Positions 7,959 through 63,076 of a DNA stretch of 64,000 nucleotides are shown piece after piece. The stretch is from contig CP070686.1 of the NCBI GenBank assembly GCA_020353055.1, positions 1,056,625-1,120,624 on the forward strand. Reading direction: 5' to 3'. This DNA is from a candidate division WOR-3 bacterium (GTDB taxonomy: Bacteria > Hydrothermota > Tepidihabitantia > SM23-42). A program made the position numbers and the translations under genes. The notes below the pieces were generated by a model. That model was not told the DNA's origin, made no database searches, and was given only the letters and a program-made list of their open reading frames with translations. Numbering within the stretch: position 1 is the stretch's first letter; every line of letters starts with the position of its first letter.

Positions 7959-9908
7959 ATGAAGATCGGTGTATATGTCTGCCACTGCGGCGGGAACATA
8001 TCCGAAGTCGTCGACATCAAGCAATTAACATCATTTGCCGAGAAGCAGTCAGACGTCGCAATCGTTCGAGACAATGCACATATGTGTTCTGATGTCGGCC
8101 GAAATCTCGTGCTGGAAGACATCAAAAAACACAATCTTGATAGAATTGTGGTGGCTGCCTGTTCGCCTCAATTTCATGGAAAGACTTTCATGGATATCGT
8201 AAAGAAGGCCGGCCTTTCACCCTATTTGTTCGAGATGGCTAATATCCGCGAACAGTGTTCTTGGCCACACTTTGACGAGCCCGAACTGGCGACCAGGAAG
8301 GCGAAAGACCTGGTGAACGTCGGAATTGCCAAGGTCAAACTTGACGAATCGTTGGAACGAAAAAGCATGCCCATCGGGAAGAGAGTACTCGTGGTTGGCG
8401 CCGGTATTGCAGGCATCCAGGCAGCGCTGGATCTCGGTGATGCCGGTTTCGAGGTTTTTCTCGTAGAGAAGAAACCCACGATCGGCGGGAAAATGGCACA
8501 ACTATCAAGGACGTTTCCAACCGAAGACTGTGCAGCATGTATCCTCTCTCCAAAGATGGCTGATGTTCCGAGCAATCCCAATATTACTTTATTCACTAAT
8601 TCAGAAGTGGAAAAAGTCTCTGGTTTTATCGGCAATTTTGAAGTAACAATTAACAAAAAACCCAGATACGTGAATGACAATTGTGTCTCCTGCGGTATCT
8701 GTGAAGAGAAATGTCCGGTGAAATTACCCAATGAATTCGAACAGGGGTTAACAACCCGCCGGGCGATCTACGTTCCGTTCGAATTTGCGGTACCGTACAA
8801 ATACGTCATCGACGAACCCAACTGCATCTATTTTCAGAAAGGCAAGTGCGGTAACTGTAAGAAGGTCTGCCCGCACGATGCGGTAGACTTCGAACAGAAA
8901 CCCGAAAAAATTGAAATCAAGGTAGACACCATAATCGTCGCGTCTGGCTATGATATCTTTGATGCCAGTGAGAAAAAAGTGTACGGCTTCGGCACGAACG
9001 AAAACGTCATCACCTCCCTGGAAATGGAACGCATGATCGTCCACGAAGCCGAAGGCCGCCCGACGAGAAAGATAGGCAATAGAATAGCATTCATCCAGTG
9101 TGTTGGTTCCCGGGACGAGCAAATCGGAAATGAATACTGCTCGAGGATCTGCTGCATGTATGCAACGAAGCTCTCGCAGCTCCTGAAGAGAACCGACCCG
9201 AAAAGGGATGTCTATGTCTTCTATACAGATCTACGTGCTTACGGTAAGGGTTTTGAAGAATATTACAAAAGAGCAGCACGGACCGGTGTCAAGTTCATTC
9301 GAGGAAGGGTCGCCGAATTGATCGAAGATCCCGAGACCAAAAAAGTGACCGTCAAAGTCGAAGATACCCTGGCACGCCAGATAATAGAATCAGAATTCGA
9401 CCTCGTCGTACTATCGGTGGGCATGCAGCCTGGCGAAGGAACTGGGAAAATCGCCGAGGTTCTGAGGATGACGCGAAGCCCCGGTGGCTTTCTCCAGGAG
9501 GCGCACCCGAAATTCAAACCGGTCGACACCCTCAACGACGGCGTGTTCATATGTGGCTGTGCGCAGGGACCCAAAGATATCCCTGACACCGTAGCACAGG
9601 CGAGTGCTGCTGCGGCGAGGGCGATAAGGCTGATGAATAAAGGTGAATATGAGGTCGAACCAATCACCGCGGTTGTCGACGAGGACCTCTGCAGTGGATG
9701 TGCAACCTGTGTAAGTGTCTGCCCGTACGATGCGGTGAAGACGGAAGTCAAGGATGACAAAAGGGTCGCCAAAGTGAACGAATTTCTTTGTCAAGGCTGT
9801 GGTTCCTGCTCGGCGGCTTGTCCTTCTGGAGCCTCACAGCAGCATTGGTTCATGAGTAGTCAATTAAAGGCCATGGTTGGCGCAGCATTAGGAGAGGAGG
9901 AAGAATGA
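7959..9908 (+). CDS. hdrA: Heterodisulfide reductase subunit A (HdrA), Cys form
   Basis: N-terminal VCHCGGNIS Cys cluster, FAD fold VLVVGAGIAGIQAALDL, FPTEDCAACILSPKM, several CxxCxxCxxxCP ferredoxin motifs. RBS AAGGAG. Confidence 0.85.
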   Translation: MKIGVYVCHCGGNISEVVDIKQLTSFAEKQSDVAIVRDNAHMCSDVGRNLVLEDIKKHNLDRIVVAACSPQFHGKTFMDIVKKAGLSPYLFEMANIREQCSWPHFDEPELATRKAKDLVNVGIAKVKLDESLERKSMPIGKRVLVVGAGIAGIQAALDLGDAGFEVFLVEKKPTIGGKMAQLSRTFPTEDCAACILSPKMADVPSNPNITLFTNSEVEKVSGFIGNFEVTINKKPRYVNDNCVSCGICEEKCPVKLPNEFEQGLTTRRAIYVPFEFAVPYKYVIDEPNCIYFQKGKCGNCKKVCPHDAVDFEQKPEKIEIKVDTIIVASGYDIFDASEKKVYGFGTNENVITSLEMERMIVHEAEGRPTRKIGNRIAFIQCVGSRDEQIGNEYCSRICCMYATKLSQLLKRTDPKRDVYVFYTDLRAYGKGFEEYYKRAARTGVKFIRGRVAELIEDPETKKVTVKVEDTLARQIIESEFDLVVLSVGMQPGEGTGKIAEVLRMTRSPGGFLQEAHPKFKPVDTLNDGVFICGCAQGPKDIPDTVAQASAAAARAIRLMNKGEYEVEPITAVVDEDLCSGCATCVSVCPYDAVKTEVKDDKRVAKVNEFLCQGCGSCSAACPSGASQQHWFMSSQLKAMVGAALGEEEE

Positions 9909-12465: not shown

Positions 12466-12479
12466 GGAAGGAGCAAGAA

Positions 12480-14135: not shown

Positions 14136-14224
14136 ACCCGGTATTATATAGAGAATCTTATTGGTCCCGGAAAAAACATTCCCAAATATACCAACGATGA
14201 CAAAGAGAATTAGAAAGGAGTCAG

Positions 14225-15430: not shown

Positions 15431-16308
15431 TGGCAACCCAGAAAGTTAATACAAACAAAGACATACATCCCATGGAAAACCTGCTCCGCATGGACCGGAT
15501 GCCACACATCTGGTGCCCGACCTGCGGAATCGGACTCGCCGTCACCGCATTCACCGCGGCTCTCGAAAAGGCAAATATCGATCCCAATATGGTGAGCATT
15601 GTCTCGGGAATTGGCTGCACTGGTAGAGTGGCTGGCTATGTGAAGGTCGATTCCTTTCACACGACACATGGCCGACCGATCGCTTTTGCCACGGGTATCA
15701 AAGTCGCAAATCCAAAGATGAAAGTCGTTGTGTTCTCGGGCGATGGTGACTTGATCGCGATCGGCGGAAATCATTTCATACATGCGGCGCGCCGCAATAT
15801 CGATATGCTGGTCGTCTGTGTTAACAACTTCATCTATGCAATGACCGGCGGTCAGGTGGCACCGACCACACCCCTGGCTGCCTATGCTACGACTTCACCG
15901 TACGGCTGTGTCGAACCACCCTTCAACATTCCTTATCTGGCTGACTCATCTGGCGCAGTATATGTAGCAAGATACACGGCATTGCACATCCGAAGGTTGA
16001 CCAATGCTTTGACTGAAGCCTTGAACAAAAAAGGATTTTCCGTCGTTGAGGTAATCTCACCGTGCGGCATGTATTATTCGCGAATCAACCGACTCGGCGA
16101 TGGACTCGAGATGATGAAATTCTATCATGATAATGTGGAAATAAAACACGGTGAAGACACGAAGAACCTGGAAATTGGATTTCAAAGCAAGATTATCTGC
16201 GGCAAGTTCGTTGACCGTGAAAGACCTTCCTACATGGAACGATACAATCAATGGCTTTCTGAAGTAAGAGCTTCAGCTAAGAATCCCGAAGGGAAAAAGG
16301 GAGCATAA
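15430..16308 (+). CDS. korB: 2-oxoacid:ferredoxin oxidoreductase beta subunit (KorB, TPP-binding), copy 1; canonical
   Basis: WCPTCGIG and GIGCTG Cys ligands, GDGD...NN TPP-Mg motif, TGGQ. TAATG overlap with the upstream gene. Confidence 0.8.
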   Translation: MATQKVNTNKDIHPMENLLRMDRMPHIWCPTCGIGLAVTAFTAALEKANIDPNMVSIVSGIGCTGRVAGYVKVDSFHTTHGRPIAFATGIKVANPKMKVVVFSGDGDLIAIGGNHFIHAARRNIDMLVVCVNNFIYAMTGGQVAPTTPLAAYATTSPYGCVEPPFNIPYLADSSGAVYVARYTALHIRRLTNALTEALNKKGFSVVEVISPCGMYYSRINRLGDGLEMMKFYHDNVEIKHGEDTKNLEIGFQSKIICGKFVDRERPSYMERYNQWLSEVRASAKNPEGKKGA

Positions 16309-16309
16309 C

Positions 16310-17551
16310 GTGAAAGCTGATCAAAAGAGCGTGCTGACCGGTGTCTACTACATAGATGGAGATGTTGCTGCGGGCTATGGTGCTCTGGCCGCGGGCTGTA
16401 AATTCGTGGCCGGTTATCCGATCACCCCATCAACGGAAGCATTTGAAGCAGTCTGCCACCGCGGACCAAAAGTCGGAACTGTGTTTATTCAGATGGAAGA
16501 TGAACTGGGTTCAATTTCGGCCATACTTGGCGCTGTGTGGTCAGGAGTCAAGACAATGACCATAACCTCTGGTCCCGGGTATTCGCTGATGCAAGAAGCA
16601 ATTGGCTTCGGAGCGATGCTCGAGACACCTTTTGTCCTGCTCAACATTCAGCGCGGCGGTCCCTCCACCGGTGTGCCGACCAAGACTGGTCAGGCAGACA
16701 TGATGCAGTCCCGGTGGGGCTCACACGGAGACTATGAGGTCATCGCCATTGCACCAGATTCGCCGCAGGAGATGTTCGATTATACGATCAAAGCGTTCAA
16801 TCTCGCCGAGAAGTACCGCTGCCCGGTCATGATAATGTCCGATGAATGCGTTGGTCATATGACCGAAAAAGTCGTTATCCCGGACGCTGACAAAATTTAC
16901 GTTGAACCAAGAAGATTCTATACCGGTCCGGCCGCGGATTACAGACCATACAAACCTGATCCAGACCTGGTGCCCAAAATGGCAAAGGCTGGCGAAGGGC
17001 TGAATCTGTACATAACCGGAATCGTTCATGACGAAAACGGATATCCAGTCAGTGATGAAAAATACAAGAGCATTTATGTAAAAAGATTAGTTGATAAGAT
17101 ACGGCTCAATAAAAACGAAATTATTGAATTGAAGGAAGAAGGAACAGACGGTGCAGATGTGATCGTTGTCTCCTATGGAATATCGTCGCGCGTCGCGGTC
17201 AAGGGTGTAGAAATGGCCAGACAAAAAGGTGTAAAGGTCGGAACGCTGCGGCTCGTTACGGTATGGCCATTTCCTGATGACCGAATCAATGAACTCGCGA
17301 AGAAAACAAAGGCCTTTGTCGTTCCGGAGATTAACTATGGACAAGTGGTTTACGACGTTGCCCGCTGCGCACACGGTCACGCCAGTGTTGTACTCGTTCC
17401 CCATGGAGGTGCTGGTGTACACAACCCCGATGACGTCGCCGATGCAATCGAATTCGCCGTCAAACAAGAGAAACCACTGGAAGGCGTTCATGAATTCAAA
17501 ACGAGGCTTGAGAAATCAGTGTTTGAGGGAGGGTTCAAATTAAAGGAATGA
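16310..17551 (+). CDS. 2-oxoacid:ferredoxin oxidoreductase alpha subunit, copy 2 (GTG start)
   Basis: Paralog of copy 1 with the canonical YPITPSTE motif. Confidence 0.8.
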   Translation: MKADQKSVLTGVYYIDGDVAAGYGALAAGCKFVAGYPITPSTEAFEAVCHRGPKVGTVFIQMEDELGSISAILGAVWSGVKTMTITSGPGYSLMQEAIGFGAMLETPFVLLNIQRGGPSTGVPTKTGQADMMQSRWGSHGDYEVIAIAPDSPQEMFDYTIKAFNLAEKYRCPVMIMSDECVGHMTEKVVIPDADKIYVEPRRFYTGPAADYRPYKPDPDLVPKMAKAGEGLNLYITGIVHDENGYPVSDEKYKSIYVKRLVDKIRLNKNEIIELKEEGTDGADVIVVSYGISSRVAVKGVEMARQKGVKVGTLRLVTVWPFPDDRINELAKKTKAFVVPEINYGQVVYDVARCAHGHASVVLVPHGGAGVHNPDDVADAIEFAVKQEKPLEGVHEFKTRLEKSVFEGGFKLKE

Positions 17552-18324
17552 ATTCAATAATCGAGGCAATTCATAAGGGCATTGAAAAATCCGGTGTCGA
17601 TCGGAAGAAAATCAGTATTCCATCCGACATACCTTTTGAGCCAGAGACGGTGAAATCGCTGGGAGTCGATTATTTCCAGGTACCACGCGGACGCGCAATA
17701 GCCTTTGGCTCAGGATTGAAATTAGGCAACCCGGATCTCAAAGTTATTCCGGTCGTCGGTGATCTCATGACACTCGGTGGAAATCATTTTGTACACGGAA
17801 CGAGAAGAAACATGGAACTCCTCGTTCTTTGTATCAATAATTTCGTCTACCATAAGATCGCCGGCAAATCAGTTTCAGTGGTGACTGAAGCATTCTCACC
17901 TTACTCTACGTTCGAAGAACCTTTCAATTTTCCCCACCTTGGTAATTCCTGCGGAGCAGTTTATACGGCACGATGGACGGCTTTGCACACAAGCGAACTC
18001 GCCGAGTCTATCGCCGAGGCGCTGCACAAACGTGGCATGTCGATGATCGAAATTCTGGCGCCCGGCCCCAGTTACTACAGATACATTACTCATCTCGACT
18101 CGGAACTGATGCAGTTCTATTTTGATAACTCAATTTTGAAGAACAACGAAGACCCTCGGAACGTGGCAATAACGGCAGACAAAAAAATAGTCGTCGGAAA
18201 ATTCACCGACAAGGAACGGCCAACCTTCATTGACTCATACAATACTCAACACAAGAAAATACTCGGTGATGAATTCACTCCTCATGGACCGGTTTTTGAC
18301 AAAGCAGGAGGTGGAAATGGCTGA
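17548..18324 (+). CDS. Degenerate beta-subunit paralog of 2-oxoacid:ferredoxin oxidoreductase. It lacks the Fe-S Cys ligands and the GDG TPP motif.
   Basis: Aligns to KorB copy 1 (GRAIAFGSGLKLGNPDLKV..LGGNHFVH..RRNMELLVLCINNFVY), but has VVGD for GDGD, no CxxC, KIAGKS for TGGQ, and APGPSYY for SPCGMYY. Confidence 0.65.
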   Translation: MNSIIEAIHKGIEKSGVDRKKISIPSDIPFEPETVKSLGVDYFQVPRGRAIAFGSGLKLGNPDLKVIPVVGDLMTLGGNHFVHGTRRNMELLVLCINNFVYHKIAGKSVSVVTEAFSPYSTFEEPFNFPHLGNSCGAVYTARWTALHTSELAESIAEALHKRGMSMIEILAPGPSYYRYITHLDSELMQFYFDNSILKNNEDPRNVAITADKKIVVGKFTDKERPTFIDSYNTQHKKILGDEFTPHGPVFDKAGGGNG

Positions 18325-18883
18325 AATTAGATTCGCCGGTTATGGGGGTCAAGGGATCATAAGATCCGGGATAATCGCCGGCAAAGCAGCGTCGATCTTC
18401 GATAGCAAGTATGCAACCATGAGTCAATCATTCGGGCCGGAAGCGCGTGGCGGTGCATGCAGCTCGCAGCTCGTCATATCCGAGAGCAAGGTCTTGTACC
18501 CGTACATCACAAATTCTGACGTCCTGATTGCCATGTCCCAGGCAGGGTATGATAAGTTTGAATCAGAAATGGGTGAAGAGGCAATGTTGTTGTACGATGA
18601 GGACCTCGTTAAACCCAAATCGTCACGCGGGAAAATCCTCGCCTACGCCATACCGGCAACACGGTTCGCTGAAGAATTGGGTATCAAGATCGTTGCGAAC
18701 GTTGTCATGCTTGGTTTTTTCACCGCCATTACCCATCTGGTCACCTATGAAAGCATGAAGAAGGCTCTGCCTGGCCTTGTCCCGGAGAAGGCATTGCCAC
18801 TGAACTTAAAAGCTTTCGAACGCGGTTATGAATATGGAAATGAGCTCTTAACCAAGAAACAATCAGATAAAGGAACGAAATAA
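18317..18883 (+). CDS. 2-oxoacid:ferredoxin oxidoreductase gamma subunit (KorC/PorG-like)
   Basis: MAEIRFAGYGGQGIIRSGIIAGKAA signature. AGGAGGTGG RBS before ATG 18317. Confidence 0.8.
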   Translation: MAEIRFAGYGGQGIIRSGIIAGKAASIFDSKYATMSQSFGPEARGGACSSQLVISESKVLYPYITNSDVLIAMSQAGYDKFESEMGEEAMLLYDEDLVKPKSSRGKILAYAIPATRFAEELGIKIVANVVMLGFFTAITHLVTYESMKKALPGLVPEKALPLNLKAFERGYEYGNELLTKKQSDKGTK

Positions 18884-18886
18884 ACT

Positions 18887-21800
18887 ATGCCAAAAGGAGC
18901 ACTCGTCATTGGTGGAGGTGTGGCTGGGGTTCAGTCCGCATTAGATTTGGCGAACGCTGGTTTCAAGGTTTTCCTTGTCGAGCGTGGCCCATGTTTGGGC
19001 GGTCGAACATCCCAGATTCACAAAATCTTCACCTCGATGGACTGTACGGGCTGAATCCTCGGCCCTAAACTAATGGATGTCGGTCGACATCCGAATATTG
19101 AGATTTTTGCCAACAGCGAAGTTGTTGGCGTCGAGGGTGAAGCACCGGATTTCAAAGTGAAGGTCAGGCGCAAATCCACATTTGTCGATTGGGACAAATG
19201 TACTGGCTGCGGGGAGTGTCCGACTGTCTGTCCGGTCCACATCAAAGATGAGTTTCAATTAGACCTTTCAAAACGAGAGGCAATTTATCGTCGGTATCCC
19301 CAAGCAGTGCCTAATAAATTTCTCATCGACAAAAGGGGCTCGCCGCCGTGTCGATACTCCTGTCCTGCAGGAGTCAATGCTCAGGGATATATCGCGCTCA
19401 TTTCACAGGGCAAATATAAAGAAGCTTTGGAACTTGAACGGAGAGACAACCCGTTCCCGGCGGTCTGCGGACGTGTCTGCACTCACCCTTGTGAATCAGA
19501 CTGCAAGCGAAAAGACGTGGACGAACCGCTGGCCATTGCCCAGCTCAAACGTTTCATTTCGGACAGTGAGCAGGAACTCTCAGCACCGAGCCCTGAATTG
19601 AACAAGGAGAAGGTTGCCGTCGTGGGCGCCGGCCCTGCAGGCCTTTCTGCCGCATATTTCCTTGCCAAGAGAGGATACTGCCCGACCGTCTTTGAAGCCA
19701 CTGACCATCCAGGCGGGCTGCTGTACTGGGCAATACCGAGATTCAGATTGCCGGAGATCGCGCTGCAGCGCGATCTGGATTACATAAAGAGTTGGGGTGT
19801 TGAGATCAAGACGGGTACTGCATTAGGCAAAGATCTTAGTATCAAAGACCTTCAACAGGATTACAAGGCGATCTTCCTCGGACTTGGCGCGGCCAAAGAA
19901 AAAACAATGGGCATAGAAGGCGAAGATCTGCAGGGCGTCTCTCTGTGTGTTGAATTTCTAAATAAGGCGGTCCACGATCCTGAGACGCCGGTAGGCAAAA
20001 GGGTCGCCGTGGTCGGCGGCGGTAATTCTGCAATAGATGCGGTGCGTACCGTGTTGCGTCTTGGCGCCGAAGAAGCATTCGTCGTATATCGCCGCTCACG
20101 CCAGGAGATGCCCGCAAACGAAGAAGAGATCGTCGAGGCGGAGAAAGAGGGAATCAAGATCCATTACCTGACCAATCCAACAAAGATATTTGGAGAAGAT
20201 GGCAAAATCAAGGGCATGGAATGCATCAAGATGAAACTGGGCGAACCTGATTCTTCAGGCCGAAGGAAACCAATACCCATCGAAGGTTCTGAATTCACCA
20301 TTAATCTGGATATGGTGATAATGGCGATCGGTCAGGCAGCCGATGTTTCATTCCTCACCAAAGAAGAAAAATTCGAGTTAACGCGCTGGGGAACCTTTGC
20401 CGTGGATCCAGACACCCTGCAAACGAACATCCCTGGTATCTTTGCCGGTGGTGATGCGGTGACCGGACCAGCCACAGTTATCGAGGCGATTGCTGCGGGG
20501 AAAGAAGCCGCAGAATCGATCGACCGCTTCATCAGAGGTGTCGATCTGAAAGCAGACAGAAAAAAGAAAGAAGATCGCGTCAAAGATGAAGATATCGAAA
20601 TCCCGGAAGAATTACAAACTGAGAAGAGAACGACGATGCCATTGCTGGATCTGGAAAAAGCGAAGAAGAGTTTCGAAGAAGTCGCCCAAGGATTCTCCGA
20701 AGAACAGGCTAAAAAAGAATCAGATCGATGCCTGAGCTGTGCAGGCTGCTCAGAATGTCTCGAATGCGTGAAGGTATGCGAACCAAATGCCATCGTGCAC
20801 GACATGGTGGACGAATTTGTGGACCTGGACGTGGGCTCGATCATCGTGACCACCGGTGTCGACTATCTCGATCCTAAAGAGGCAAGTGAATACGGATACA
20901 AACGCTTCAAGAATATCTATACATCTTTTGAAATTGAACGGATCATGAGCGAAGACGGCCCGAGTGCCGGCGAACTTCCCCTTGGCAAACAATTAAAGGA
21001 GCCGTTACGTTTCGCATTCATCCAATGCGTTGGATCGCGTAATATGCGCCATGACATCAACTATTGCAGCCGCATTTGTTGTATGAACACGATAAAAGAC
21101 AGTCTGGTCCTTAAAGAACACTACCCTGACGCAAATATTGTCGTATTCTATATTGACATTAGAGCCTTTGGAAAGGGATTTGAAGAATTTTATAATCGGT
21201 CCCTCGAAAAGGGTGTGAAATATATCAAGGGTAAACCATCAAAGGTGATTGAGGATGGCTCGGGAAATTTGGTTATTCATTATGAAAACGAACAGGGACA
21301 CTCAGGCCAAATGATATTCGATGCCGTATGTCTCTCTTCAGCGCTGATTCCGTCAAGGGGCTGCAGAGAATTGGCCGGCGTGCTCGGCGTCGATATCGAC
21401 GATGATGGTTTTTACAAAAACATGGAACCGGCAACCGCACCGCTTGAGTCAACGAAAAAAGGCGTTCTGGTATGCGGTTGCGCAACAGGTCCTAAGGACA
21501 TTACCGATTCGATCGCCGAGGCGAGCGGTGCCGCGGTTAAGGCAGCATGTTTCTTGGAGGGCCATGAACTGCCGGTCGAGAAAAAGGAAATCGAACAAGT
21601 CGATGTGTCCGGTCCACCGAGAGTCGGTGTCTTTGTCTGCCATTGCGGCCCGAATATTTCAAAGGTTGTCGATGTCAAAGGCGTAGTTGAATACGCGAAG
21701 ACTTTACCGGATGTGGTATTCGCCGAGGATTATACGTTCGCCTGTTCTGAAACAGCCCAACACCAGATTCAAGAGAGGATAGCCGAACACAAACTGAACA

Positions 21801-23284
21801 GGGTTGTTGTCGCCGCCTGTACACCCAAGACGCATGAAATGAGCTTTCAAGATTCATTAACTGCCGTCGGTCTCAATCCGTACCTCTTCGATATCGCGAA
21901 CATCAGGAATCAATGCTCCTGGGTACATCAGAAAGAACCAGAAAAGGCAACCGAGAAAGCAAAAGAATTAGTCAGGATGTCGGTGGCGCGTGTTCGAAAA
22001 CTAGGTCCGCTCTTCATGAAAGAACTGTCGGTTAACCGCGATGTCGCTGTCATCGGCGCTGGTATCACCGGCCTGCGATGCGGTATTGATTTGCTCCAGC
22101 GGGGCTTTAAGGTCAAAATAATTGAGAAAAAAGAATTATCAGGCGGTCTGGTACGGCATCTCTCCAGCATCTATCCCAGCTTCCGGAAAGGAAGGAATAT
22201 TGTCGAGAAACTTCTCGATGAATTCACCAGTGCGGGCGGCGAACTTCTGACTTCAACAGAACTTGTGGATGTCACCGGTTATGTAGGTAACTTCCAGGTT
22301 AAGGTGAAGAGTGCAAAAGGAGAGACCGAATTCACGGTGGGCGCTATCGTTCTCGCCACGGGGTCAGAACTCTATGATCCAGGCGAGCGCTTTGGCTACG
22401 GTAAATATCCCAATGTCATCACCAACATGGAATTAGAACAAAAACTAATATCGGGTGAAATCGACGATATAAAATCCGTTGCCTTTTTCCAGTGCGTCGG
22501 CTCGAGGGGTGACGACGGTAATCCCGGATGTTCTCGCTATTGCTGTCAGGCAGCAATAAAAGAAGCCATTCATTTAAGAGAAAAAGGGATCGATGTTGCT
22601 ATTCTCAACCGCGGTGTCAGGGTTTATTCAAAAGGCGCCGAGCGGATGTACCGCAAGGCAAGGGAACTCGGCGTCCTATTCTTACCGTACGATGGAGAAC
22701 CAGAGATCACCGGAGCCGATAAGGCGGAAGCGGTCACGATCCCGTCACCAGATATCGATGCCGACATTACCATCCCGGTTAACCTCGTTGTGCTTTCGGT
22801 AGGCATGGTCCCGGCTGCCGATTCAGGACATCTTTCAGAGTTATTTAAGGTCCCGCGTGGGCCTGATAAGTTCTTCCTGGAACGTCACTCGAAATTCGGT
22901 CCGGTAGAAACAACGGTTGAGGGCGTGTTCTTATGCGGTTGTTGTCAGTTCCCGCAGGATATCGGAGATTCGATATCCCAGGCTTCGGCTGTGGCATCGA
23001 AGGTTGCCGCGCTGCTTAGCCGTGACAAGATCACGCTGGCACCCATAACATCTACGGTCATCGAAGAATACTGCCGTGGCTGTGGCAGGTGCGCTGAAGT
23101 ATGCGAATTCCGCGCGATAGAATTGGTTGAGAAGGAAAACGGCGTTTTCGTTGCGCAAGTTAACGAAGCGCTGTGCAAAGGTTGCGGGACGTGCGTCGCG
23201 GCATGCCCAACCGGTGCCATCGACCTCAAACATTTCAGAAGTGAACAGATCGAGGCCCAATTGGAGGCGCTGTTTGAAGGATAA
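18887..23284 (+). CDS. HdrL-like giant heterodisulfide-reductase-A fusion (HdrA half with a GltD/NfnB-like NAD(P)H domain insert, plus a second complete HdrA). It contains an in-frame UGA at 19052-19054 read as selenocysteine. The ORF track splits it into 18887-19054 and 19073-23284.
   Basis: ATG 18887 is 3 nt after the korC stop. N-term [21 protein letters not shown]...[23 protein letters not shown] is colinear with HdrA FPTEDCAACILSPKM (the TGA sits at the second Cys). Both pieces are in the same frame. GltD-like CxxC clusters and [32 protein letters not shown](P)H folds; second [11 protein letters not shown] HdrA module. Confidence 0.75.
19075..19092 (+). promoter_or_regulatory. Putative bacterial SECIS hairpin (GGATGTCGGTCGACATCC) 21 nt downstream of the UGA
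   Basis: Perfect inverted repeat. Identical sequence at the same distance from the second UGA (27093-27110). Absent from the Cys-form hdrA. Confidence 0.5.
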
Positions 23285-23346: not shown

Positions 23347-23853
23347 ATGAAACAATCGGTTAAGAAAATAAAAGAACGATCCGATCACTCAACGGTTCAA
23401 CGATCCAAGGAAACCTTCGAGCCTAAGATCGTTGCCTTCTGCTGCAACTGGTGCTCATACCCGGCAGCAGACGGTGCGGGCGTCTCCAGGCTGCAATACC
23501 CCACGAATATCAAGATCGTCAGGGTAATGTGCGGCGGCCGCGTGACGCCATCCTTCGTCCTGAAGGCTTTCGAGTTGGGTGCAGACGGCGTTCTGGTTGC
23601 CACCTGCCATTTCGAGGACTGCCACTACATGTTTGGAGCGCGGAAGGCTGCGGATGTGCACAAGGTAACTGAGAAACTCACCGAGATGCTCGGCATCGAG
23701 AAAGAACGTCTCAAACTCGACTGGATCTCATCGGCCGAAGCGTCGAAATTTGCCAGGGTTGCCCGGGAATTCACCGAAACGATTAGAAAACTCGGACCGT
23801 CTACTATAAAGAAGAAGTTGGACGCCCTCAACGAAAGCATTGAAGATGAATAG
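23347..23853 (+). CDS. mvhD: MvhD homolog, second copy
   Basis: FCCNWCSYPAADGAG ... TCHFEDCHY. Confidence 0.85.
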   Translation: MKQSVKKIKERSDHSTVQRSKETFEPKIVAFCCNWCSYPAADGAGVSRLQYPTNIKIVRVMCGGRVTPSFVLKAFELGADGVLVATCHFEDCHYMFGARKAADVHKVTEKLTEMLGIEKERLKLDWISSAEASKFARVAREFTETIRKLGPSTIKKKLDALNESIEDE

Positions 23854-24994
23854 CAAGATCGCCAAAGCCATCAAGGATTCGAAGGCATATTTATGCATGG
23901 AATGCGGTAAGTGCACTGGAACCTGTCCGGTCTCACGATATAACCATGGATATTCTCCACGCATCCTCGTGAACAAAGCGATAAGGAGTGGCGATCTTAA
24001 TTTATTGAAGGACAAAAATATCTGGGCGTGCCTGACCTGTAAATTGTGTGATGAACGTTGCCCTGCTGGCATCGAATACATCGATCTTACACTCACGACG
24101 CGTCTCGAAGCAAAGAAAATAGGAGAGCAAGCGCTCTGCTCTCATGGTGGCGCGGCGCAATCGCTGATGCGCATCATGACAACACCAGAGCTCGAGCAAA
24201 AACGACTCGATTGGATCGACCAAACTCTGAAAACAACACAAAATGGTGAAGTGCTATATTTTGTTGGCTGTCTCCCCTACTTCGACGTTCTGTTCAGCGA
24301 TATAAACGTCAACACCCTGCAAGCGGCAAAGGCGAGTATAAAGATTCTCAATCGGTTAGGTGTCACTCCGGTCGTACTGCCCCAGGAAAGATGTTGTGGG
24401 CATGATCTTCTCTGGAGCGGCGACATGGAGAACTTCGAGAAACTGGCACGGCACAATATCAGAGAAATAAAAAAATCCGGCGCCAAGAAGATCGTTTTTT
24501 CGTGTCCTGAAGGTTACCGGACATTCAAAATCGATTATCCAAAGTATTTCAATACTGATTTTGAGGTCGAACATATCACTGAAGTAATAAGTCGGGCCAT
24601 TTCCAACGGCGAGCTCAAATTAAAGAATCTGAAAAAGGTCGTTACGTTTCAGGATCCTTGCCGGCTCGGCAGGCACCTTGGAATCTACGATGAACCAAGG
24701 AAGGCCATTACCGCAATACCCGAAATACAATTGAACGAGATGGCGAGGAGCCGACAGCGTGCGATATGCTGCGGCGTTAGCGCATGGATGAACTGCTCGA
24801 CCTATTCAAAGAGCATTCAGCGAGCACGGCTTACAGAAGCAAAGGACACAAAGGCTGATCTGCTGGTTCTTTCCTGTCCTAAATGTGAAATTCATTTCCA
24901 GTGTGCTATGCATGACGAAAAAGCAGGCGAGCAAGCGAAAATTGAAACGGTCCAATTGGTCACTATGATTGCAGATGCACTGGAGGGTGAGTAA
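23840..24994 (+). CDS. HdrD-like fused HdrC/HdrB protein (N-terminal 2x[4Fe-4S], C-terminal CCG domains)
   Basis: CMECGKCTGTCP and CLTCKLCDERCP, then CCG motifs (ERCCGHD, AICCGVS). Confidence 0.75.
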   Translation: MKMNSKIAKAIKDSKAYLCMECGKCTGTCPVSRYNHGYSPRILVNKAIRSGDLNLLKDKNIWACLTCKLCDERCPAGIEYIDLTLTTRLEAKKIGEQALCSHGGAAQSLMRIMTTPELEQKRLDWIDQTLKTTQNGEVLYFVGCLPYFDVLFSDINVNTLQAAKASIKILNRLGVTPVVLPQERCCGHDLLWSGDMENFEKLARHNIREIKKSGAKKIVFSCPEGYRTFKIDYPKYFNTDFEVEHITEVISRAISNGELKLKNLKKVVTFQDPCRLGRHLGIYDEPRKAITAIPEIQLNEMARSRQRAICCGVSAWMNCSTYSKSIQRARLTEAKDTKADLLVLSCPKCEIHFQCAMHDEKAGEQAKIETVQLVTMIADALEGE

Positions 24995-25494
24995 TGGCTA
25001 AAGAAAAAATACAAGTTGATTTTCGGTTTCGCGATAAACTCAACAAAGTGCAGGGAGGCAAGCACCATAATTACTGCTACCAGTGCAGCGCGTGTGTTGC
25101 CGTCTGCCCCGCGGCACGATTCACCGAAGAATTCAATCCCCGCGTGATCTTACTGAAGGCACTGCTTGGTATGGAGGAAGCACTCACTGGAGAAGATTCA
25201 CCTATCTGGCTTTGCACAAACTGCTATTCATGTTACGAACGCTGTCCACAAGATGTGCGTCCCATCGAGGTAATTATCGCCTTGAAAAACATGGCCGTGC
25301 AGCGACAGAAAGCACCGGCAAGCCTCGCCAAACTCTCAGACAATATCGCCAAAACCGGAGTCAGCGTCACCGTGACTTCGGCAGTTAACAGACGAAGACA
25401 GGAGTTGGGTCTCCCTCCGATTAAGACAATACCGATCGAAGAGTTGAAAGAGATCCTGGAAGACCCGCAAGGAGCGGCAAAGGACAGTGAATAG
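24994..25494 (+). CDS. hdrC: HdrC-like iron-sulfur subunit, second copy
   Basis: CYQCSACVAVCP and CTNCYSCYERCP. TAATG coupling to the upstream gene. Confidence 0.75.
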   Translation: MAKEKIQVDFRFRDKLNKVQGGKHHNYCYQCSACVAVCPAARFTEEFNPRVILLKALLGMEEALTGEDSPIWLCTNCYSCYERCPQDVRPIEVIIALKNMAVQRQKAPASLAKLSDNIAKTGVSVTVTSAVNRRRQELGLPPIKTIPIEELKEILEDPQGAAKDSE

Positions 25495-25497
25495 ATT

Positions 25498-26382
25498 ATG
25501 AAAGTGATTCCTTTTTGGGGATGTATGATGCCCCTCAAATATCCACAGATGGAACTGGCGATCAGAAAGACTCTTCCTAATCTCGGTATCGAACTCGTGG
25601 ATATCGACGGTTTCACGTGCTGCCCCGATCCCATCTATTTCAAAGCCCGGGACAAGATCAAGTGGCTCACCATTGCCGCACGCAACCTGGCAATTGTCGA
25701 GGAAAAGGGTCTTGATGTCATCACCATGTGCTCGGGGTGTATTTCGACTTTAAAAGAAGCAAAATACACGCTCGACGAAGACCCCCAGGCGAAAGAAGAA
25801 GTAAACCGGCGGTTGAGAAAAGTGAATAGGGAATACAAGGGTACCGCAAAGATAAATCACGCGGTCGTTCTGATCAGAGACAGCCTCGGACTGGATGTCG
25901 TGAAGAAATCAATAAAACGGCCGCTCGAGGGCGTGACAGTTGCGATCCACTATGGTTGTCACATACTGAAACCGAGCCAGATCATGCACGTCGATGACGC
26001 CGATTATCCAAGCATCCTAGATGACTTCGTCTCCGCGATGGGCGCAACACCCCTTGACCATAAAGAAAAACTCCTGTGCTGTGGTAAGGGATGTATGGAC
26101 GAGGACCTCCCCCTCGAAATGACCGAGACTATTTTTGCGTCTATAGAAGAGAGTGGCGCCGATTGCATGGGGCTGGTGTGCCCGACGTGTTTCTCTTCAT
26201 TTGATTTAGGACAAATAATGATTTCCCGCAAAAAGGGGAAAACCTACAATATTCCCGTCATCTACCTGTTTCAACTCCTCGGCCTCGCACAGGGGCTGGA
26301 GCCTGAACAAGTAGGTCTCCACACTCATCGGGTAAAGGCAGATCGAGTGTTGGAAAAAATAAAAGGAAGTGCAAAAGTATGA
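25498..26382 (+). CDS. hdrB: HdrB-like CCG-domain subunit, second copy
   Basis: CCPDP and CCGKGC CCG-domain motifs. Confidence 0.8.
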   Translation: MKVIPFWGCMMPLKYPQMELAIRKTLPNLGIELVDIDGFTCCPDPIYFKARDKIKWLTIAARNLAIVEEKGLDVITMCSGCISTLKEAKYTLDEDPQAKEEVNRRLRKVNREYKGTAKINHAVVLIRDSLGLDVVKKSIKRPLEGVTVAIHYGCHILKPSQIMHVDDADYPSILDDFVSAMGATPLDHKEKLLCCGKGCMDEDLPLEMTETIFASIEESGADCMGLVCPTCFSSFDLGQIMISRKKGKTYNIPVIYLFQLLGLAQGLEPEQVGLHTHRVKADRVLEKIKGSAKV

Positions 26383-26475
26383 AACACTGTTTTGAAAATT
26401 CGAATTTTGGATTTGGATATTGTTTAGTATTTCGATATTCGATATTAGAATTTGAACAAAAAGGGGGTGATCAAG

Positions 26476-28935
26476 ATGCCGCAGGATGATTTGAAAATCG
26501 GCGTTTTTATTTGCGAATGTGGTACAAACATCGCTGGCTCAGTTGATGTCGACAGTGTCGTTGCGAACGCCAAGAAGACAGGTAATGTCGTGTACAGCAC
26601 GAAGAGCCGCTACATGTGTTCGGAACCCGGTCAGGCAGAAATAAAGAAGGCAATAAAAGAGGAGAAACTCGACAGGGTAATCATCGCAGCGTGTTCACCG
26701 CGTATGCACGAACCAACCTTCAGGGAATGTGTCGCCTCGGTCGGCATGAATCCATATCTGGTTGATATGGCAAATATCCGGGAGCAATGCTCATGGGTTC
26801 ATATGGGTAACCGTGAAGCAGCAACAAAGAAAGCTAAAGATATCATGAAGGCATACGTTGCGCGAGCACGATACCTGCAACCGCAGGAGGAAAAGGAAAT
26901 CCCGGTCGAAAGAGCAACATTGATAATCGGCGGTGGGATTGCTGGGATGCAGTCGGCACTCGACCTGGCCGACGCAGGTTACCAGGTATACCTCGTCGAG
27001 AAAGAACCGTCACTGGGTGGTTTGATGTCCAAACTGGCTAAGACATATCCTACCATGGATTGCGCGATATGAATACTCGGCCCGAAGATGATGGATGTCG
27101 GTCGACATCCCAATATCAAGCTTCTGACCAACAGCAAAGTCGAGGCGATAAAAGGCTATGTCGGCAACTTCGACGTTAAGGTACTCAAGAAGACGCGCTA
27201 TGTAGACGAAACTCAGTGTACCGCATGTGGTGATTGCGCCGAAGTGTGCCCGGTTGTCGTTCCGGATGCTTACCAGCAGGGGCTATCATCAAGAAAAGCT
27301 ATTTATATTCCATTCCCCCAGGCCGTGCCATCGGCATCTCTGATCGATATGGAAAGTTGTCTGGGCACCAATCCAATTGCCTGCGGCAAGTGCGCCGACA
27401 AGTGTGACAAGAAATGTATTGACTACGATGCAAAAGACGAAACGATCGAATTCAAGGTCGGTACCGTTATCGTGGCAACGGGTATGGATGTATTTGACCC
27501 GGTGATTCTGGAAGAATACGGTTATACAAAACACGAAAATGTTGTTACGAGCATGGAGTTTGAAAGATTGCTGTCTGCTGGAGGACCCTCTGACGGACAC
27601 TTCATCCGTCCGACCGACCGGCAGAGGCCAAAGACCGTCGGTTTTGTCCAATGCGTTGGTTCGCGCTGCGAAAAGATCGGCAAACCCTACTGTAGCAATA
27701 TCTGCTGCATGAACACGATCAAGGACACGCTACTATTGAAAGACCACTATCCCGACATACAGGCAAAGGTTTTCTACATCGACATCAGGGCTTTTGGTAA
27801 GGGTTTCGAGGATCTGTTCAAACGAAGCAAAGAGGCGGGTGTACAATACATCAGAGGTATTCCCGGAGAGATCACCGAAGACCCCAAGTCCCGTAATCTG
27901 AAGGTTATGGTCGAAGATACTACTTCTAACAAAATAGAAGAACATGAATTTGACATGATGGTTCTCTCTGTCGGAGTGACACCAAGATTAGATATGCCCG
28001 AGGTTCAACAATTACTGACGCTGTCAAAAACGCCCGACGGTTTCTTTATGGAAGCACACCCGAAACTCAAACCAGTGGATGCACCGTCTACCGGCATTTA
28101 TTTTGCAGGCTGTGCCGAGGCGCCGAAGGATGTTAAGGATTCGGTGACCCAGGCGAGCGCAGCAGCGGCCAGAGCCGAAACACTACTATCAGCAGGAAAG
28201 GTCAAATTGGAAGCGATCACGTCCACGCTGGACACTGCTCTATGCCGGTATTGTGCAACGTGTTCCAGGGTATGTCCTTATGGAGCCTTCACCGTTGACC
28301 CGAAAAAGAAAACGATTTCCTACATCGATGCCCTTTGCAAAGGTTGCGGCACATGTGCCGCCGAGTGCCGGTTTGGCGCACTGACAATGAAACACTTCAC
28401 CGATGAACAGATTGTAACTCAAATCGACGCCCATCTCGCCGAAGATCCTGGGGAAAAAGTAATCGTCTTTGCCTGTAACTGGTGTTCTTATGCAGGTGCC
28501 GATACCTGCGGTGGCGCACGGCTTCAGTATCCACCTAACCAGCGTTTGATCAGAACAATGTGTAGTGGCAGGGTAGATGAAAAATTCGTGCTGCATGCGT
28601 TCAGGAAAGGTGCCCCAATGGTTGTCGTATCCGGATGCCATTACGTCGACTGCCACTATATCGATGCGAACCGCTGGACCCAGAAGAGAGTCGAAAAACT
28701 TTGGGATAAATTCGAAAAATGGGGAATTAGACCCGAGAGATTGCTGCTCGAATGGATAAGTGCTGCAGAGGGACAACGGTTTCAAAAAACCATGCAGGAT
28801 ATCGAAGAACTGAGAAAGAAAGTAACAAAAGAAGAGATCGAACAAACAGTAAAGATCCTGACCGAAGAAGAAGAAAAAGATAAGGCAAAAGCTAAGAAGA
28901 AACAAGCTGACAGTCCAACAAAAAAGAAATCGTGA
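26476..28935 (+). CDS. hdrA: HdrA-MvhD fusion protein with an in-frame UGA (27070-27072) read as selenocysteine. The ORF track splits it into 26452-27072 and 27088-28935.
   Basis: GGGGGTGA RBS then ATG 26476. [51 protein letters not shown] (UGA at the Cys position of CAACIL). C-terminal FACNWCSYAGAD...GCHYVDCHY MvhD domain and a Lys-rich tail. Confidence 0.8.
27093..27110 (+). promoter_or_regulatory. Putative SECIS hairpin (GGATGTCGGTCGACATCC) 20 nt downstream of the UGA
   Basis: Identical to the hairpin after the HdrL UGA. Confidence 0.5.
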
Positions 28936-37592: not shown

Positions 37593-39116
37593 ATGGCAAT
37601 CGTGTTGGATGGTGAACATTTGACAATCGAAAAGCTTGTCGATATTGCCCGAAACAACGAAGAGGTCCAGATCGCACCTGATTCATTGGGAAAAATCAAA
37701 GAATGCCGCGCCCTGATCGAGGAAAAGATCAAAGTCAAGGAGATAATGTACGGTATCAATACCGGTATAGGTGAACTTTCCGAGGTCGTGCTCAGCGATG
37801 AACAGGTCAAACAATTTCAGAGGTACTTGATATACAACCATGCCGCAGGTATAGGTGACCCGGCGCCAATTGAGCATGTGCGCGGCGCTATGGCCAGCCG
37901 CATAAATGTCATGAGTAAAGGCAAGTCCGGATGTCGACCCATAATACCCCTCACCTATGCCGAGATGTTGAACAAAGGCGTGACGCCCGTGGTCTGCCAG
38001 AAGGGCTCGGTCGGGGCATGTGGTGATCTGGCGCCAATGTCCCAGATTGCCCTGCTTTTGATGGGAGAAGGCGAGGCGTTTTATGAAGGAAAACGCTTAC
38101 CGGCCAGGGCGGCAATGGAAAAAGCAGGCATCGAGATCCCCGGATTACAGGCACGCGATGGTTTATCCTGCATAAACGGATCCAACCTGCTCACCGCGAT
38201 AAGTGCCCTGCAACTTTTCGATATCAACCGCTGGTTGAAACAAGCGGAAATCGCCTGTGCCATGACGCTCGAGGCGCTGATGGCGAACCTCAAACCGTAT
38301 GATACCAGGCTGCACGAGGCACGCGGGTTTGCCGGCGCAGTCAGAACAGCCCGTGCCATCATGAAATGCATAGAAGGCAGCGACCTGCAAACTGGTAAGC
38401 ATAAGATGAAGGTTCAAGATGCATATTCAATGCGCTCCTCACCCCAGGTTATCGGTGCCGCACACGATGCTGTCGCCCACGCAAGAAAGCAGGTCGAGAT
38501 CGAGCTCAACGGGGTCGGTGATAATCCAGTATTCTTCCCCGAATACAAACTTGCGATCACCGGCGCCAATTTTCAAGGAACACCGGTATCGCTGCCCATG
38601 GAAATGGTCGGCACGGCTGTGACCATGGTCTGCGTGCTATCGGAGAGGCGCTTGAATCGTATGACAAACCCCAACCTGAGTGTCGGCCTGCCCGCATTCC
38701 TAACCAGAGGAGCCGGGATGTTTTCGGGATTGATGCTGAGTCAATACACTGCAGACACGCTCATCGTCGAACAACGCATCCTTTCTGCTCCGGCGGCGAC
38801 GATGTCGATACCGGCGGCTGCCGACCAGGAAGACTTCGTTTCGATGGGTATGAACACGGCGCTCAAGAACCTCCAGATAATTGACAATGCATACGGAATT
38901 CTGGGGATCGAATTCATGGCTGCAGCGCAGGCCCTGGATTTCCGTGAATTCACACCGGGCAAAGGCGTCGTTACCGCGAAGAAGACGATACGTAAATACG
39001 TCGAGCATCTCGATGAAGACCGACCATTATATAATGACCACAATAAAATGAAAGAACTGGTCAAGTCGTGTGAAATACTCGACACGGTGGAGAATACAGT
39101 AGGCAGTCTGGGTTAA
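37593..39116 (+). CDS. hutH: Histidine ammonia-lyase family (MIO-dependent aromatic amino acid lyase)
   Basis: GSVGACGDLAPMS aligns to the HAL GSVGASGDLAPLS MIO motif. The rest is colinear with HAL (~507 aa). Confidence 0.8.
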   Translation: MAIVLDGEHLTIEKLVDIARNNEEVQIAPDSLGKIKECRALIEEKIKVKEIMYGINTGIGELSEVVLSDEQVKQFQRYLIYNHAAGIGDPAPIEHVRGAMASRINVMSKGKSGCRPIIPLTYAEMLNKGVTPVVCQKGSVGACGDLAPMSQIALLLMGEGEAFYEGKRLPARAAMEKAGIEIPGLQARDGLSCINGSNLLTAISALQLFDINRWLKQAEIACAMTLEALMANLKPYDTRLHEARGFAGAVRTARAIMKCIEGSDLQTGKHKMKVQDAYSMRSSPQVIGAAHDAVAHARKQVEIELNGVGDNPVFFPEYKLAITGANFQGTPVSLPMEMVGTAVTMVCVLSERRLNRMTNPNLSVGLPAFLTRGAGMFSGLMLSQYTADTLIVEQRILSAPAATMSIPAAADQEDFVSMGMNTALKNLQIIDNAYGILGIEFMAAAQALDFREFTPGKGVVTAKKTIRKYVEHLDEDRPLYNDHNKMKELVKSCEILDTVENTVGSLG

Positions 39117-49973: not shown

Positions 49974-51084
49974 GTGAACAAGCCGTCCGACACGAATGTC
50001 GTAACCATCGACGAGATAAAGAAACTCAAGACTAGATTCGATGGTCTGAAGGAGCATCTTTGACCTTCAGAAACTCGAACAAGAACTAAAGAAGCTACAG
50101 AAAAGAACCTCCAATCCGGAATTCTGGGCGAATAAAACCGAAGCCCAGAAGATAATGTCTGAAATAAACGAAAAACAATTCTGGCTTCAATCAGTAGAGA
50201 CAATAGGTTCTGACATCGAACTCCTTGCTGGTTTGATAGAATTGGAGGAAATAGACGACAAAATGCTTGCTGAAGCGACCCACGAAGCAAAGAAGGTCGA
50301 GGGGAAGTTGAGGGATATCGAGTTGAAATTACTACTGGGTAAAGAGGATGACATGAAGAACTGCATCCTGACGATTCACCCGGGTGCCGGAGGTACAGAA
50401 TCCTGCGATTGGGCTGAGATGTTAATGCGTATGTATATGCGATGGTTTCAGATGAAAGACTTCACCCACCGGATGCTTAATTTCCTGCCAGGGGATGTTG
50501 CCGGCATAAAGGATGCTACTATTGAAGTAGTGGGTAAATATGCGTACGGCTTACTGAAAGCAGAGGTGGGTATTCATCGGTTAGTACGAATATCACCCTT
50601 CGATTCGAACGCGCGGCGTCATACGTCCTTTGCCTCGGTATTTGTCTACCCTGAAGTCGAAGATGTCAGCGTTGAAATCAATGATGATGACCTGCGAATA
50701 GACACATACCGGGCGGGCGGCCACGGCGGACAGAATGTGAACAAAGTCTCTTCCGCAGTCAGGATCACACACATCCCGACTGGAATCACGGTTCAGTGCC
50801 AAAATGAACGCTCACAATTTCAAAATAAAAACAATGCGATGAAAATATTACGGTCTCGGCTTTACGATTACTATCAAAAACAAGAAGATGAGAAGCTTGC
50901 AAAATTAAACAAGCAGAAAACAGAGATCGCCTGGGGACATCAAATACGTTCCTATGTATTTCACCCGTACAAACTCGTCAAGGACCATCGTACAGACTAC
51001 GAAACATCCCAGGCCGACAAGGTCATGGATGGCGAAATAGATGATTTCATACATGCCTATCTCAGCATGAAGGCAGAAATCTAG
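49974..51084 (+). CDS. prfB: Peptide chain release factor 2, translated via programmed +1 frameshift at CTT-TGA-C (50058-50064). Frame 0 covers 49974-50060 and frame +1 covers 50062-51084.
   Basis: GAAGGAG RBS then GTG 49974. Short frame-0 ORF ending ...GLKEHL-TGA with an upstream SD-like AAGGAG. The downstream frame encodes SPF and GGQ motifs. Confidence 0.85.
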
Positions 51085-61318: not shown

Positions 61319-61339
61319 ATGAACTCTAAAACCAATTAC

Positions 61340-63058: not shown

Positions 63059-63076
63059 AGGAACTCCAGAAACGGA

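Follow-up and report, generated by a model that had tools for sequence, protein, structure and literature searches.

A predicted in-frame selenocysteine codon and hairpin in an HdrA2-type HdrA-MvhD fusion gene of a candidate division WOR-3 bacterium

The stretch of candidate division WOR-3 DNA analysed here (64,000 nucleotides (nt) of contig CP070686.1, hereafter the window) contains a gene, at the end of a cluster encoding heterodisulfide reductase (Hdr)-like proteins, in which HdrA is fused to MvhD and the reading frame is interrupted by one TGA codon. We predict that this codon is read as selenocysteine (Sec) under the direction of a short hairpin, a candidate selenocysteine insertion sequence (SECIS), that lies within the coding sequence. 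The features of the gene, all on the forward strand, are as follows.

26476..28935, + strand: hdrA2-type gene, HdrA (N-terminal Fe-S, flavin adenine dinucleotide (FAD)/thioredoxin-reductase-like and ferredoxin domains) fused to MvhD; NF040770
27067..27069, + strand: AUA (Ile) codon directly 5' of the UGA, presumed recoding context
27070..27072, + strand: UGA codon 199, predicted Sec codon at the position of Cys197 in 5odc_A and of Sec197 in Methanococcus maripaludis HdrA
27073..27087, + strand: I-L-G-P-K codons, from the UGA up to ATG 27088; translated
27093..27110, + strand: predicted bacterial SECIS hairpin GGAUGUC-GGUC-GACAUCC, stem 27093-27099/27104-27110, apical loop 27100-27103
28459..28809, + strand: MvhD ([2Fe-2S]) domain, residues 662-778, directly after the HdrA C-terminal ferredoxin domain
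28843..28932, + strand: Lys/Glu/Ala-rich low-complexity tail, residues ~790-819

Translation of 26476-28935 gives 819 codons and a terminal stop, also a TGA, with a single internal stop at TGA 27070-27072. ATG 26476 is the likely start, since a Shine-Dalgarno-like run (GGGGGTG) precedes it. For profile searches the Sec codon was translated as Cys. In Pfam searches, 4Fe-4S and FAD/pyridine-nucleotide-disulfide oxidoreductase domains precede an FlpD/MvhD domain (residues 662-778, E 4e-43), and in phmmer searches of PDB sequences residues 5-652 match HdrA (5odc_A, E 2.7e-233) and residues 660-777 match MvhD (5odc_D, E 9e-40), the two parts being joined with essentially no linker. The NCBIfam model NF040770, 'CoB-CoM heterodisulfide reductase HdrA2' (hetero_SS_HdrA2), is matched over its full length (profile 1-777/777) at 1163.7 bits, above its curated cutoff of 1100. 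Because the Pfam, PDB and full-length NF040770 matches agree, we assign the protein to the HdrA2 type, in which HdrA and MvhD form a single polypeptide.

The internal UGA, in the context TMDCAI-U-ILGPK, occupies the second Cys of a D-C-x-x-C motif in the thioredoxin-reductase-like domain of the HdrA fold. In a HMMER alignment codon 199 corresponds to Cys197, and Cys196 to Cys194, of the Methanothermococcus thermolithotrophicus enzyme (5odc_A). In the crystal structure Cys197 reaches across the dimer: Chadwick et al. describe how one HdrA, through its thioredoxin-reductase domain, contributes this residue as a ligand to the N-terminal [4Fe-4S] cluster of its partner HdrA (PMC9012536). In M. maripaludis the residue is Sec197, as reported in cryo-EM work of 2026 on the Hdr-Vhu-Fwd complex, which proposed a Cys-Sec relay between the FAD and the cluster and called the role of the residue unresolved (PMC13518236). 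Since the UGA of the window aligns with Cys197/Sec197, it falls at the one HdrA position already known as selenocysteine.

Downstream of the UGA, nucleotides 27093-27110 can form a hairpin with a 7-bp stem and a GGUC loop while also encoding part of the peptide M-D-V-G-R-H-P. The hairpin starts 21 nt, and its loop 27 nt, past the UGA. An identical 18-mer follows, again by 21 nt, a second in-frame UGA in a paralogous gene of the window, HdrL (19075-19092). The 18-mer has exactly two copies in the 64 kb, where 0.00 are expected by chance; the remaining matches come from its own reverse strand, the sequence being nearly palindromic. Folding of 34-nt pieces at the two UGA sites gave -12.1 and -10.9 kcal/mol (z -2.5 and -2.7). 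A published model of the bacterial SECIS (bSECIS) calls for a loop of 3-9 nt with G in loop position 1 or 2, a stem of 4-16 bp, a distance of 16-37 nt from the UGA and a minimum free energy of -7.5 kcal/mol or lower (PMC13188914). Here the loop has 4 nt and starts with GG, the stem has 7 bp, the distance is 27 nt and the energy lies between -10.9 and -12.1 kcal/mol. The equivalent stretch of a Cys-form hdrA elsewhere in the window does not fold above background (z +0.5), and no hairpin follows its Cys codon.

To place the gene in a wider context, we made one scan of species-representative genomes, which retrieved 80 full-length orthologues with 61-95% identity from at least 10 phyla. The nearest (92-95% identity) are metagenome-assembled genomes of candidate division WOR-3, and the orthologues on the complete WOR-3 chromosomes CP070802.1 and CP070795.1 (93-95% identity) carry TGA; the others come from Zixibacteria, Marinimicrobia/Fidelibacterota, Calditrichota, KSB1, Eisenbacteria, Krumholzibacteria, Armatimonadota, Anaerolineae, Dehalococcoidia and further groups. 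The equivalent of codon 199 is TGA in 69 of the 80 and TGT or TGC in the remaining 11, so that the UGA stands at a position where homologues, 5odc_A among them, have Cys. Apart from this single in-frame stop, the open reading frame (ORF) of every TGA form is intact and runs for 791-1008 codons. The Cys forms belong to a single clade labelled Dehalococcoidia/Chloroflexota, adjoining Sec-bearing Anaerolineae; one switch between Sec and Cys therefore accounts for the distribution.

The hairpin is conserved at all 71 TGA sites, and its RNAalifold consensus energy is -10.25 kcal/mol for these sites versus -0.21 for the 11 Cys sites. Substitutions in the stem are compatible with wobble pairing (12 sequences have U-G for U-A, and 2 have G-U for G-C), and pairing is lost only at a terminal pair, in 2 sequences. 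A longer lower stem, seen in the single-sequence fold, was rejected: its flanks vary among orthologues and RNAalifold retains the 7-bp stem only. A scan of the window at Rfam gathering thresholds returned zero matches. The Escherichia coli fdhF SECIS also has a GGUC-like apical loop with essential G23 and U24, positioned a few codons nearer its UGA than the 27 nt found here; no bulged U is evident in the 7-bp stem.

Codon usage separates what is conserved as protein from what is conserved as RNA. In 70 genes, the five amino acids encoded from the UGA up to ATG 27088 (I-L-G-P-K) never change, although the third positions of their codons have entropies of 1.0-1.8 bits; because the amino acids are fixed despite this freedom, we conclude that the segment is translated. 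Together with the rest of the ORF past the UGA, it displays purifying selection at the protein level with free synonymous change. The peptide MMDVGRHP, which overlaps the hairpin, is identical in TGA and TGY forms. Its codons differ: TGA forms always use GAT-GTC-GGT-CGR/AGG-CAT, whereas the Cys forms vary in their synonymous codons (GAC GTG GGA CGC CAC, for example), so that the stem cannot form. Across the whole gene, the 70 Sec genes share 300 conserved codon-degenerate columns with a mean codon entropy of 1.46 bits. Zero entropy is found in only 5 of the 300, namely I198, which directly precedes the UGA, and the hairpin codons D207, V208, G209 and H211; no other column falls below 0.3 bits. 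The scan shows that the only synonymous constraint in the gene lies on the hairpin and the UGA context. Taken with the translated I-L-G-P-K segment and the contrast between TGA and Cys forms, it shows that the UGA is decoded and that the hairpin is selected as RNA.

Part of this constraint falls on the immediate neighbours of the UGA. The preceding codon is ATA in 70 of 70 TGA forms and ATA, ATC or ATT in the 11 Cys forms, and in TGA forms the UGA is invariably followed by A (AUH, Ile), with Val encoded there in 10 of the 11 Cys forms. Within the aligned orthologues no conserved pairing partner was found for the AUA or the post-UGA bases. The context is not universal, as HdrL has GGC before its UGA. 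The 18-nt hairpin and the AUA-UGA context are nucleotide-invariant in genes whose proteins are 61-68% identical. We considered recent horizontal transfer as the main cause of this invariance and rejected it, because the tree broadly follows phylum and other synonymous sites are saturated.

These patterns bear on the simplest alternative, in which the UGA is a true stop and a 198-residue N-terminal Fe-S/FAD fragment assembles non-covalently with a 615-residue C-terminal fragment started at ATG 27088. Mechanical ORF calling returns exactly these two pieces (26452-27072 and 27088-28935), and split HdrA genes are on record in Desulfobacterium autotrophicum (PMC2702500). Public gene callers likewise split close relatives: in a large predicted-protein collection the closest ones (P0007, P0011, P0013 and P0019; 88-91% identity) are 592-609 amino acids long and cover 72% of the query, and the full-length matches are Cys forms, the named ones being labelled Dehalococcoidia or Chloroflexota HdrA2. 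As these relatives start after the UGA in the public sets, standard gene calling evidently hides the Sec forms. A simple split would leave the five strictly selected codons between the UGA and ATG 27088 unexplained in 70 genes, and would give the hairpin-specific synonymous constraint no role. Moreover, no Shine-Dalgarno-like sequence precedes ATG 27088, the split point would fall inside the FAD domain, exactly at the cluster-ligand/redox Cys, and the TGA always takes the place of a Cys codon and never lies between domains. We regard a split gene as extremely unlikely.

A second alternative is that the TGA is a mistake of sequencing or assembly, that a mutation has made the gene a pseudogene, or that UGA is a sense codon in this organism. 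A single base change from TGY to TGA would be the simplest possible error, and UGA has been reassigned in some uncultured bacteria. An identical TGA is, however, found in 69 independently assembled genomes and in the paralogue of the window, in ORFs that are otherwise intact, and the presence of the codon in independent assemblies excludes a sequencing error. As to the genetic code, TGA ends 19 of the 51 genes of the window, including the hdrB-like gene 93 nt upstream and the hdrA2-type gene itself, and only 2 in-frame TGAs occur in ~17,000 codons. The window also encodes release factor 2 (RF2):

49974..51084, + strand: prfB (release factor 2), TIGR00020 at 460 bits, cutoff 370

The first frame of prfB runs from GTG 49974 (or TTG 49971) to CTT 50058-50060 and reading resumes at 50062; the ORF listing contains only the downstream 309-codon part. 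The gene carries the +1 frameshift site AGGAG-N3-CUU UGA C (50058-50064), and a UGA-sense code is excluded because this autoregulation depends on RF2 reading UGA. The probability that an error, a pseudogene or a reassigned code explains the TGA is accordingly close to nil.

A third possibility is selenium-free read-through of UGA199 by a near-cognate tRNA (Trp or Cys), with the hairpin as a generic stimulator; downstream structures do stimulate stop-codon read-through in other systems, and machinery for Sec was not found in the 64-kb window. The hairpin, though, has the loop size, the initial GG and the spacing of the SelB-type bSECIS model, and archaeal HdrA as well as the catalogued bacterial Sec-HdrA genes have Sec at this very site. 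The TGA has also been retained in 69 lineages, none of them drifting to TGG or TGY; such retention speaks for a benefit beyond that of the standard amino acids. Read-through of this kind appears very unlikely.

Several observations nonetheless weigh against the prediction that UGA199 encodes Sec in a functional Hdr enzyme. Pfam searches of the ~50 proteins of the window and an ARAGORN scan found no selA, selB, selD or tRNA-Sec; ARAGORN found no tRNA of any kind in these 64 kb, and no tRNA-Sec in 80 related loci. Double compensatory substitutions were sought in the hairpin among the TGA sites and none were found; the stem is nearly invariant and so offers no covariation, and the structural support therefore consists of the synonymous-site constraint and the wobble-compatible changes. 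The Fisher test of TGA against Cys forms (p 6e-12 for GTC and for GGT) overstates independence, because the Cys forms are one clade and the Sec/Cys contrast is one event; the gene-wide scan is confined to Sec genes and is free of this weakness. At the level of function, the hdrB- and hdrC-like neighbours score under the NCBIfam equivalog cutoffs, and no coenzyme M (CoM) or coenzyme B (CoB) metabolism is expected in WOR-3, so that an enzymatic role is assigned by homology only.

Taking both sides together, we consider it highly probable from the comparative sequence data that UGA199 is a genuine Sec codon in an HdrA2-type HdrA-MvhD fusion, and we infer the incorporation of selenium from it. A preliminary description of this stretch, made from the letters alone, had placed the UGA at the second Cys of the DCxxC motif, as translation and the 5odc_A alignment now confirm. 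It had also preferred genuine Sec to a sequencing error, a preference that the hairpin, the 69 TGA orthologues and the hairpin-specific synonymous constraint all favour, and it had pointed to a paralogue with the same recoding, which we recover as HdrL (ATG 18887), with TGA 19052-19054 and the identical 18-mer.

We propose the following mechanism. During translation, the hairpin at 27093-27110 would recruit SelB-GTP-Sec-tRNA(Sec), so that UGA199 would be decoded as Sec and escape termination by RF2; the AUA that invariably precedes the UGA probably adds to the recoding context. In the product, Sec199 would complete a D-C-x-x-U motif within the thioredoxin-reductase-like domain and correspond to Cys197 of methanogen HdrA. 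Together with the HdrC and HdrB proteins encoded upstream, the hdrA2-type product could form a module for flavin-based electron bifurcation or confurcation, in which electrons may enter or leave through the [2Fe-2S] domain of the fused MvhD. We infer SelB dependence, Sec incorporation and the partners and substrates of the enzyme; a ferredoxin-linked bifurcating or confurcating role seems a reasonable reading of the gene content.

The other Hdr genes named here are listed below.

7959..9908, + strand: Cys-form hdrA (DCAAC), 45% identical to the fusion protein
18887..23284, + strand: HdrL paralogue, HdrA half + GltD/NfnB-like NAD(P)-binding insert + second HdrA half; predicted Sec-UGA 19052-19054, hairpin 19075-19092
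23347..23853, + strand: mvhD, upstream of the HdrD-like gene
23840..24994, + strand: hdrD-like HdrC-HdrB fusion, between mvhD and the hdrC-like gene
24994..25494, + strand: hdrC-like gene, dicluster ferredoxin; TIGR03290 at 109 bits, below the cutoff of 160; likely partner subunit
25498..26382, + strand: hdrB-like gene, two CCG domains; TIGR03288 at 303 bits, below the cutoff of 345; likely catalytic partner; ends in TGA

HdrL is the only other gene of the window with coding-like sequence around an in-frame TGA: when all six frames were searched for TGAs with long open sequence on both sides, HdrL and the hdrA2-type gene stood out, and the 12 other read-through candidates were rejected as selenoprotein genes because their frames are non-coding. 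HdrL has the build of a pseudo-heterodimer fused into one chain. Its first HdrA half starts at the FAD-binding GxGxxG and has the DCxxU site without an N-terminal Fe-S domain. It is followed by the GltD/NfnB-like NAD(P)-binding module (NF009410, 580 bits) and a second HdrA half that has the N-terminal CxC...C domain and no Cys or Sec at the 197-equivalent position. HdrA fusions of anaerobic methanotrophic archaea (ANME) show the same complementary pattern in the opposite order (PMC9012536).

The Hdr genes belong to a co-directional cluster of 21 kb (7959-28935) with gaps of at most 93 nt, at the end of which lies the hdrA2-type gene. The order is Cys-form hdrA-mvhD-hdrC-hdrB, a TfrA-like flavoprotein, two 2-oxoacid:ferredoxin oxidoreductase sets, HdrL-MvhD-HdrD-like and hdrC-hdrB-hdrA2. 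It is plausible that the cluster forms one operon. Promoter and terminator scans returned counts near the shuffle expectation, with a weak sigma-70-like match at 26392-26421, just 5' of the hdrA2-type gene. This match lies in an AT-rich spacer of 93 nt (26383-26475), a possible internal promoter or operator, in which short motifs recur in tandem (ATTTTGGATTTGGATATT; TTCGATATTCGATATT).

The order HdrL - MvhD - HdrD-like - HdrA2 is conserved in other phyla. In three loci (L014 30-2956; L025 202-2964, labelled Fidelibacterota; and L051 20-2988, labelled Chloroflexia), an HdrD-like gene of ~380 amino acids directly precedes hdrA2 and is itself preceded by an HdrA/HdrL-like gene with a terminal or following MvhD. 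A separate hdrC-hdrB pair between the HdrD-like gene and hdrA2 is found in WOR-3 and a few other lineages; in some loci the pair lies downstream. Between the Cys-type Hdr module and HdrL, the genes of the region 11707-18883 (+) run in the same direction as the Hdr genes. They code for an Fe-S protein and a flavoprotein resembling TfrA/FrdA, which scores under every equivalog cutoff, as well as for two alpha/beta sets of 2-oxoacid:ferredoxin oxidoreductase, one directly after the other, and a single gamma subunit. This gene content suggests that the region and the Hdr genes make up a ferredoxin-linked redox super-cluster.

The preliminary description had further regarded the fusion protein as HdrA2-like, and the FlpD, 5odc_D and above-cutoff NF040770 matches agree with it there. 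The fusion is not unusual, as had been suggested: all 80 retrieved orthologues, from at least 10 phyla, have it. The Lys-rich tail is likewise real and commonplace, since most of the 80 orthologues end in a Lys/Glu/Ala-rich tail that keeps its character and varies in sequence and length. One Chloroflexi orthologue (L041) has a CxxC...CxxC zinc-ribbon-like extension (…MLCMRCGNKWAVTFDPAADEERLCPRCRS…) in place of the charged tail, and one further orthologue is 1008 amino acids long. As for the claim that Cys-form and Sec-form isoforms coexist in one operon, a Cys-form hdrA does exist, but 'one operon' says more than the co-directional layout shows, and 'isoforms' does not describe the two genes: they are 45% identical, and the Cys form lacks a fused MvhD and has its own mvhD-hdrC-hdrB. 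For the same reasons we rejected a Sec/Cys isoenzyme pair of the Vhu/Vhc type, which would call for a close paralogue of the same architecture. By sequence, the Cys-form hdrA is a distant paralogue and not a selenium-backup isoform.

Elsewhere in the window, three consecutive proteins have weak C-terminal matches to Por_Secre_tail, the sorting domain of type IX secretion (~27-29 bits, at or close to the cutoff of 27). Por_Secre_tail proteins and histidine-utilisation genes, the latter encoding an aromatic amino-acid lyase (possibly HutH) and the urocanase HutU, are located at 59588-63919 (-), 37593-39116 (+) and 44743-46425 (+).

For annotation, these results mean that 26476-28935 would be recorded as one 819-codon selenoprotein rather than as two ORFs or a pseudogene. 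Because relatives are truncated at the UGA in public sets, HdrA2 selenoproteins of WOR-3 and of phyla of the Fibrobacteres-Chlorobi-Bacteroidetes (FCB) type are probably under-counted. If the prediction is true, a central electron-bifurcating module of WOR-3 would require selenium. That nearly all members of this subclass have Sec in place of Cys197 also supplies comparative data on the role of this residue, as Fe-S ligand or as part of a Cys-Sec relay (PMC13518236). Perhaps Sec is the default at this position in bacterial HdrA2-type enzymes, and the residue hence a redox-active Cys-x-x-Sec relay from the FAD to the N-terminal cluster rather than a passive Fe-S ligand; we offer this tentatively and think it somewhat doubtful. 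If Sec were indeed the default, a large class of selenoproteins, mis-called as split ORFs, would be hidden in sediment bacteria. The current understanding of selenoproteins and Hdr enzymes is unchanged by these results.

Much of what we describe has precedents. Sec-containing HdrA has been known for ~20 years (PMC1794560, PMC2702500) and the HdrA2 subclass since 2017; mildly new are the lineage (WOR-3 and neighbouring phyla), the majority of Sec forms in the HdrA2 subclass and the nucleotide invariance of the SECIS and AUA-UGA context. HdrA has been catalogued as a selenoprotein family of archaea and bacteria since at least 2006, when it was the fourth-largest bacterial family and Syntrophobacter fumaroxidans alone had 7 Sec-HdrA copies (PMC1794560). 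The genome of D. autotrophicum HRM2 encodes Sec-HdrA and Sec-HdrL beside Cys paralogues, with hdrA or hdrL followed by mvhD, and HdrA-MvhD fusions have been on record since at least 2009 (PMC2702500). The HdrA2 subclass was defined in 2017 on HdrA2B2C2 of Methanosarcina acetivorans, in a paper that already pointed out bacterial homologues and mentions selenocysteine 0 times (PMC5296606). Our literature search found no paper joining WOR-3 and selenoprotein terms.

Compared with the Sec-HdrA of Methanococcales (M. maripaludis and M. jannaschii, Sec197), the WOR-3 protein belongs to the same family and shares the Sec residue and the domain layout. In Methanococcales, the SECIS is located in the 3' untranslated region and VhuD/MvhD is a separate protein, whereas here an in-frame hairpin lies in the coding sequence and MvhD is fused, in a non-methanogenic bacterium. 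The protein is a member of the same selenoprotein family as the bacterial Sec-HdrA and Sec-HdrL of S. fumaroxidans, Syntrophus aciditrophicus and D. autotrophicum HRM2; it differs from the Sec-HdrA proteins of Deltaproteobacteria and Firmicutes in its phylum and in its HdrA2-type fusion. With the consensus bacterial SECIS, the element shares the position just past the UGA within the ORF, the small G-starting loop and a spacing within 16-37 nt (PMC13188914). The characterised HdrA2 has the same fused architecture, and here too hdrB- and hdrC-like genes are adjacent (PMC5296606); its substrates, CoM-S-S-CoB and coenzyme F420, are not expected in WOR-3, and the reaction probably differs.

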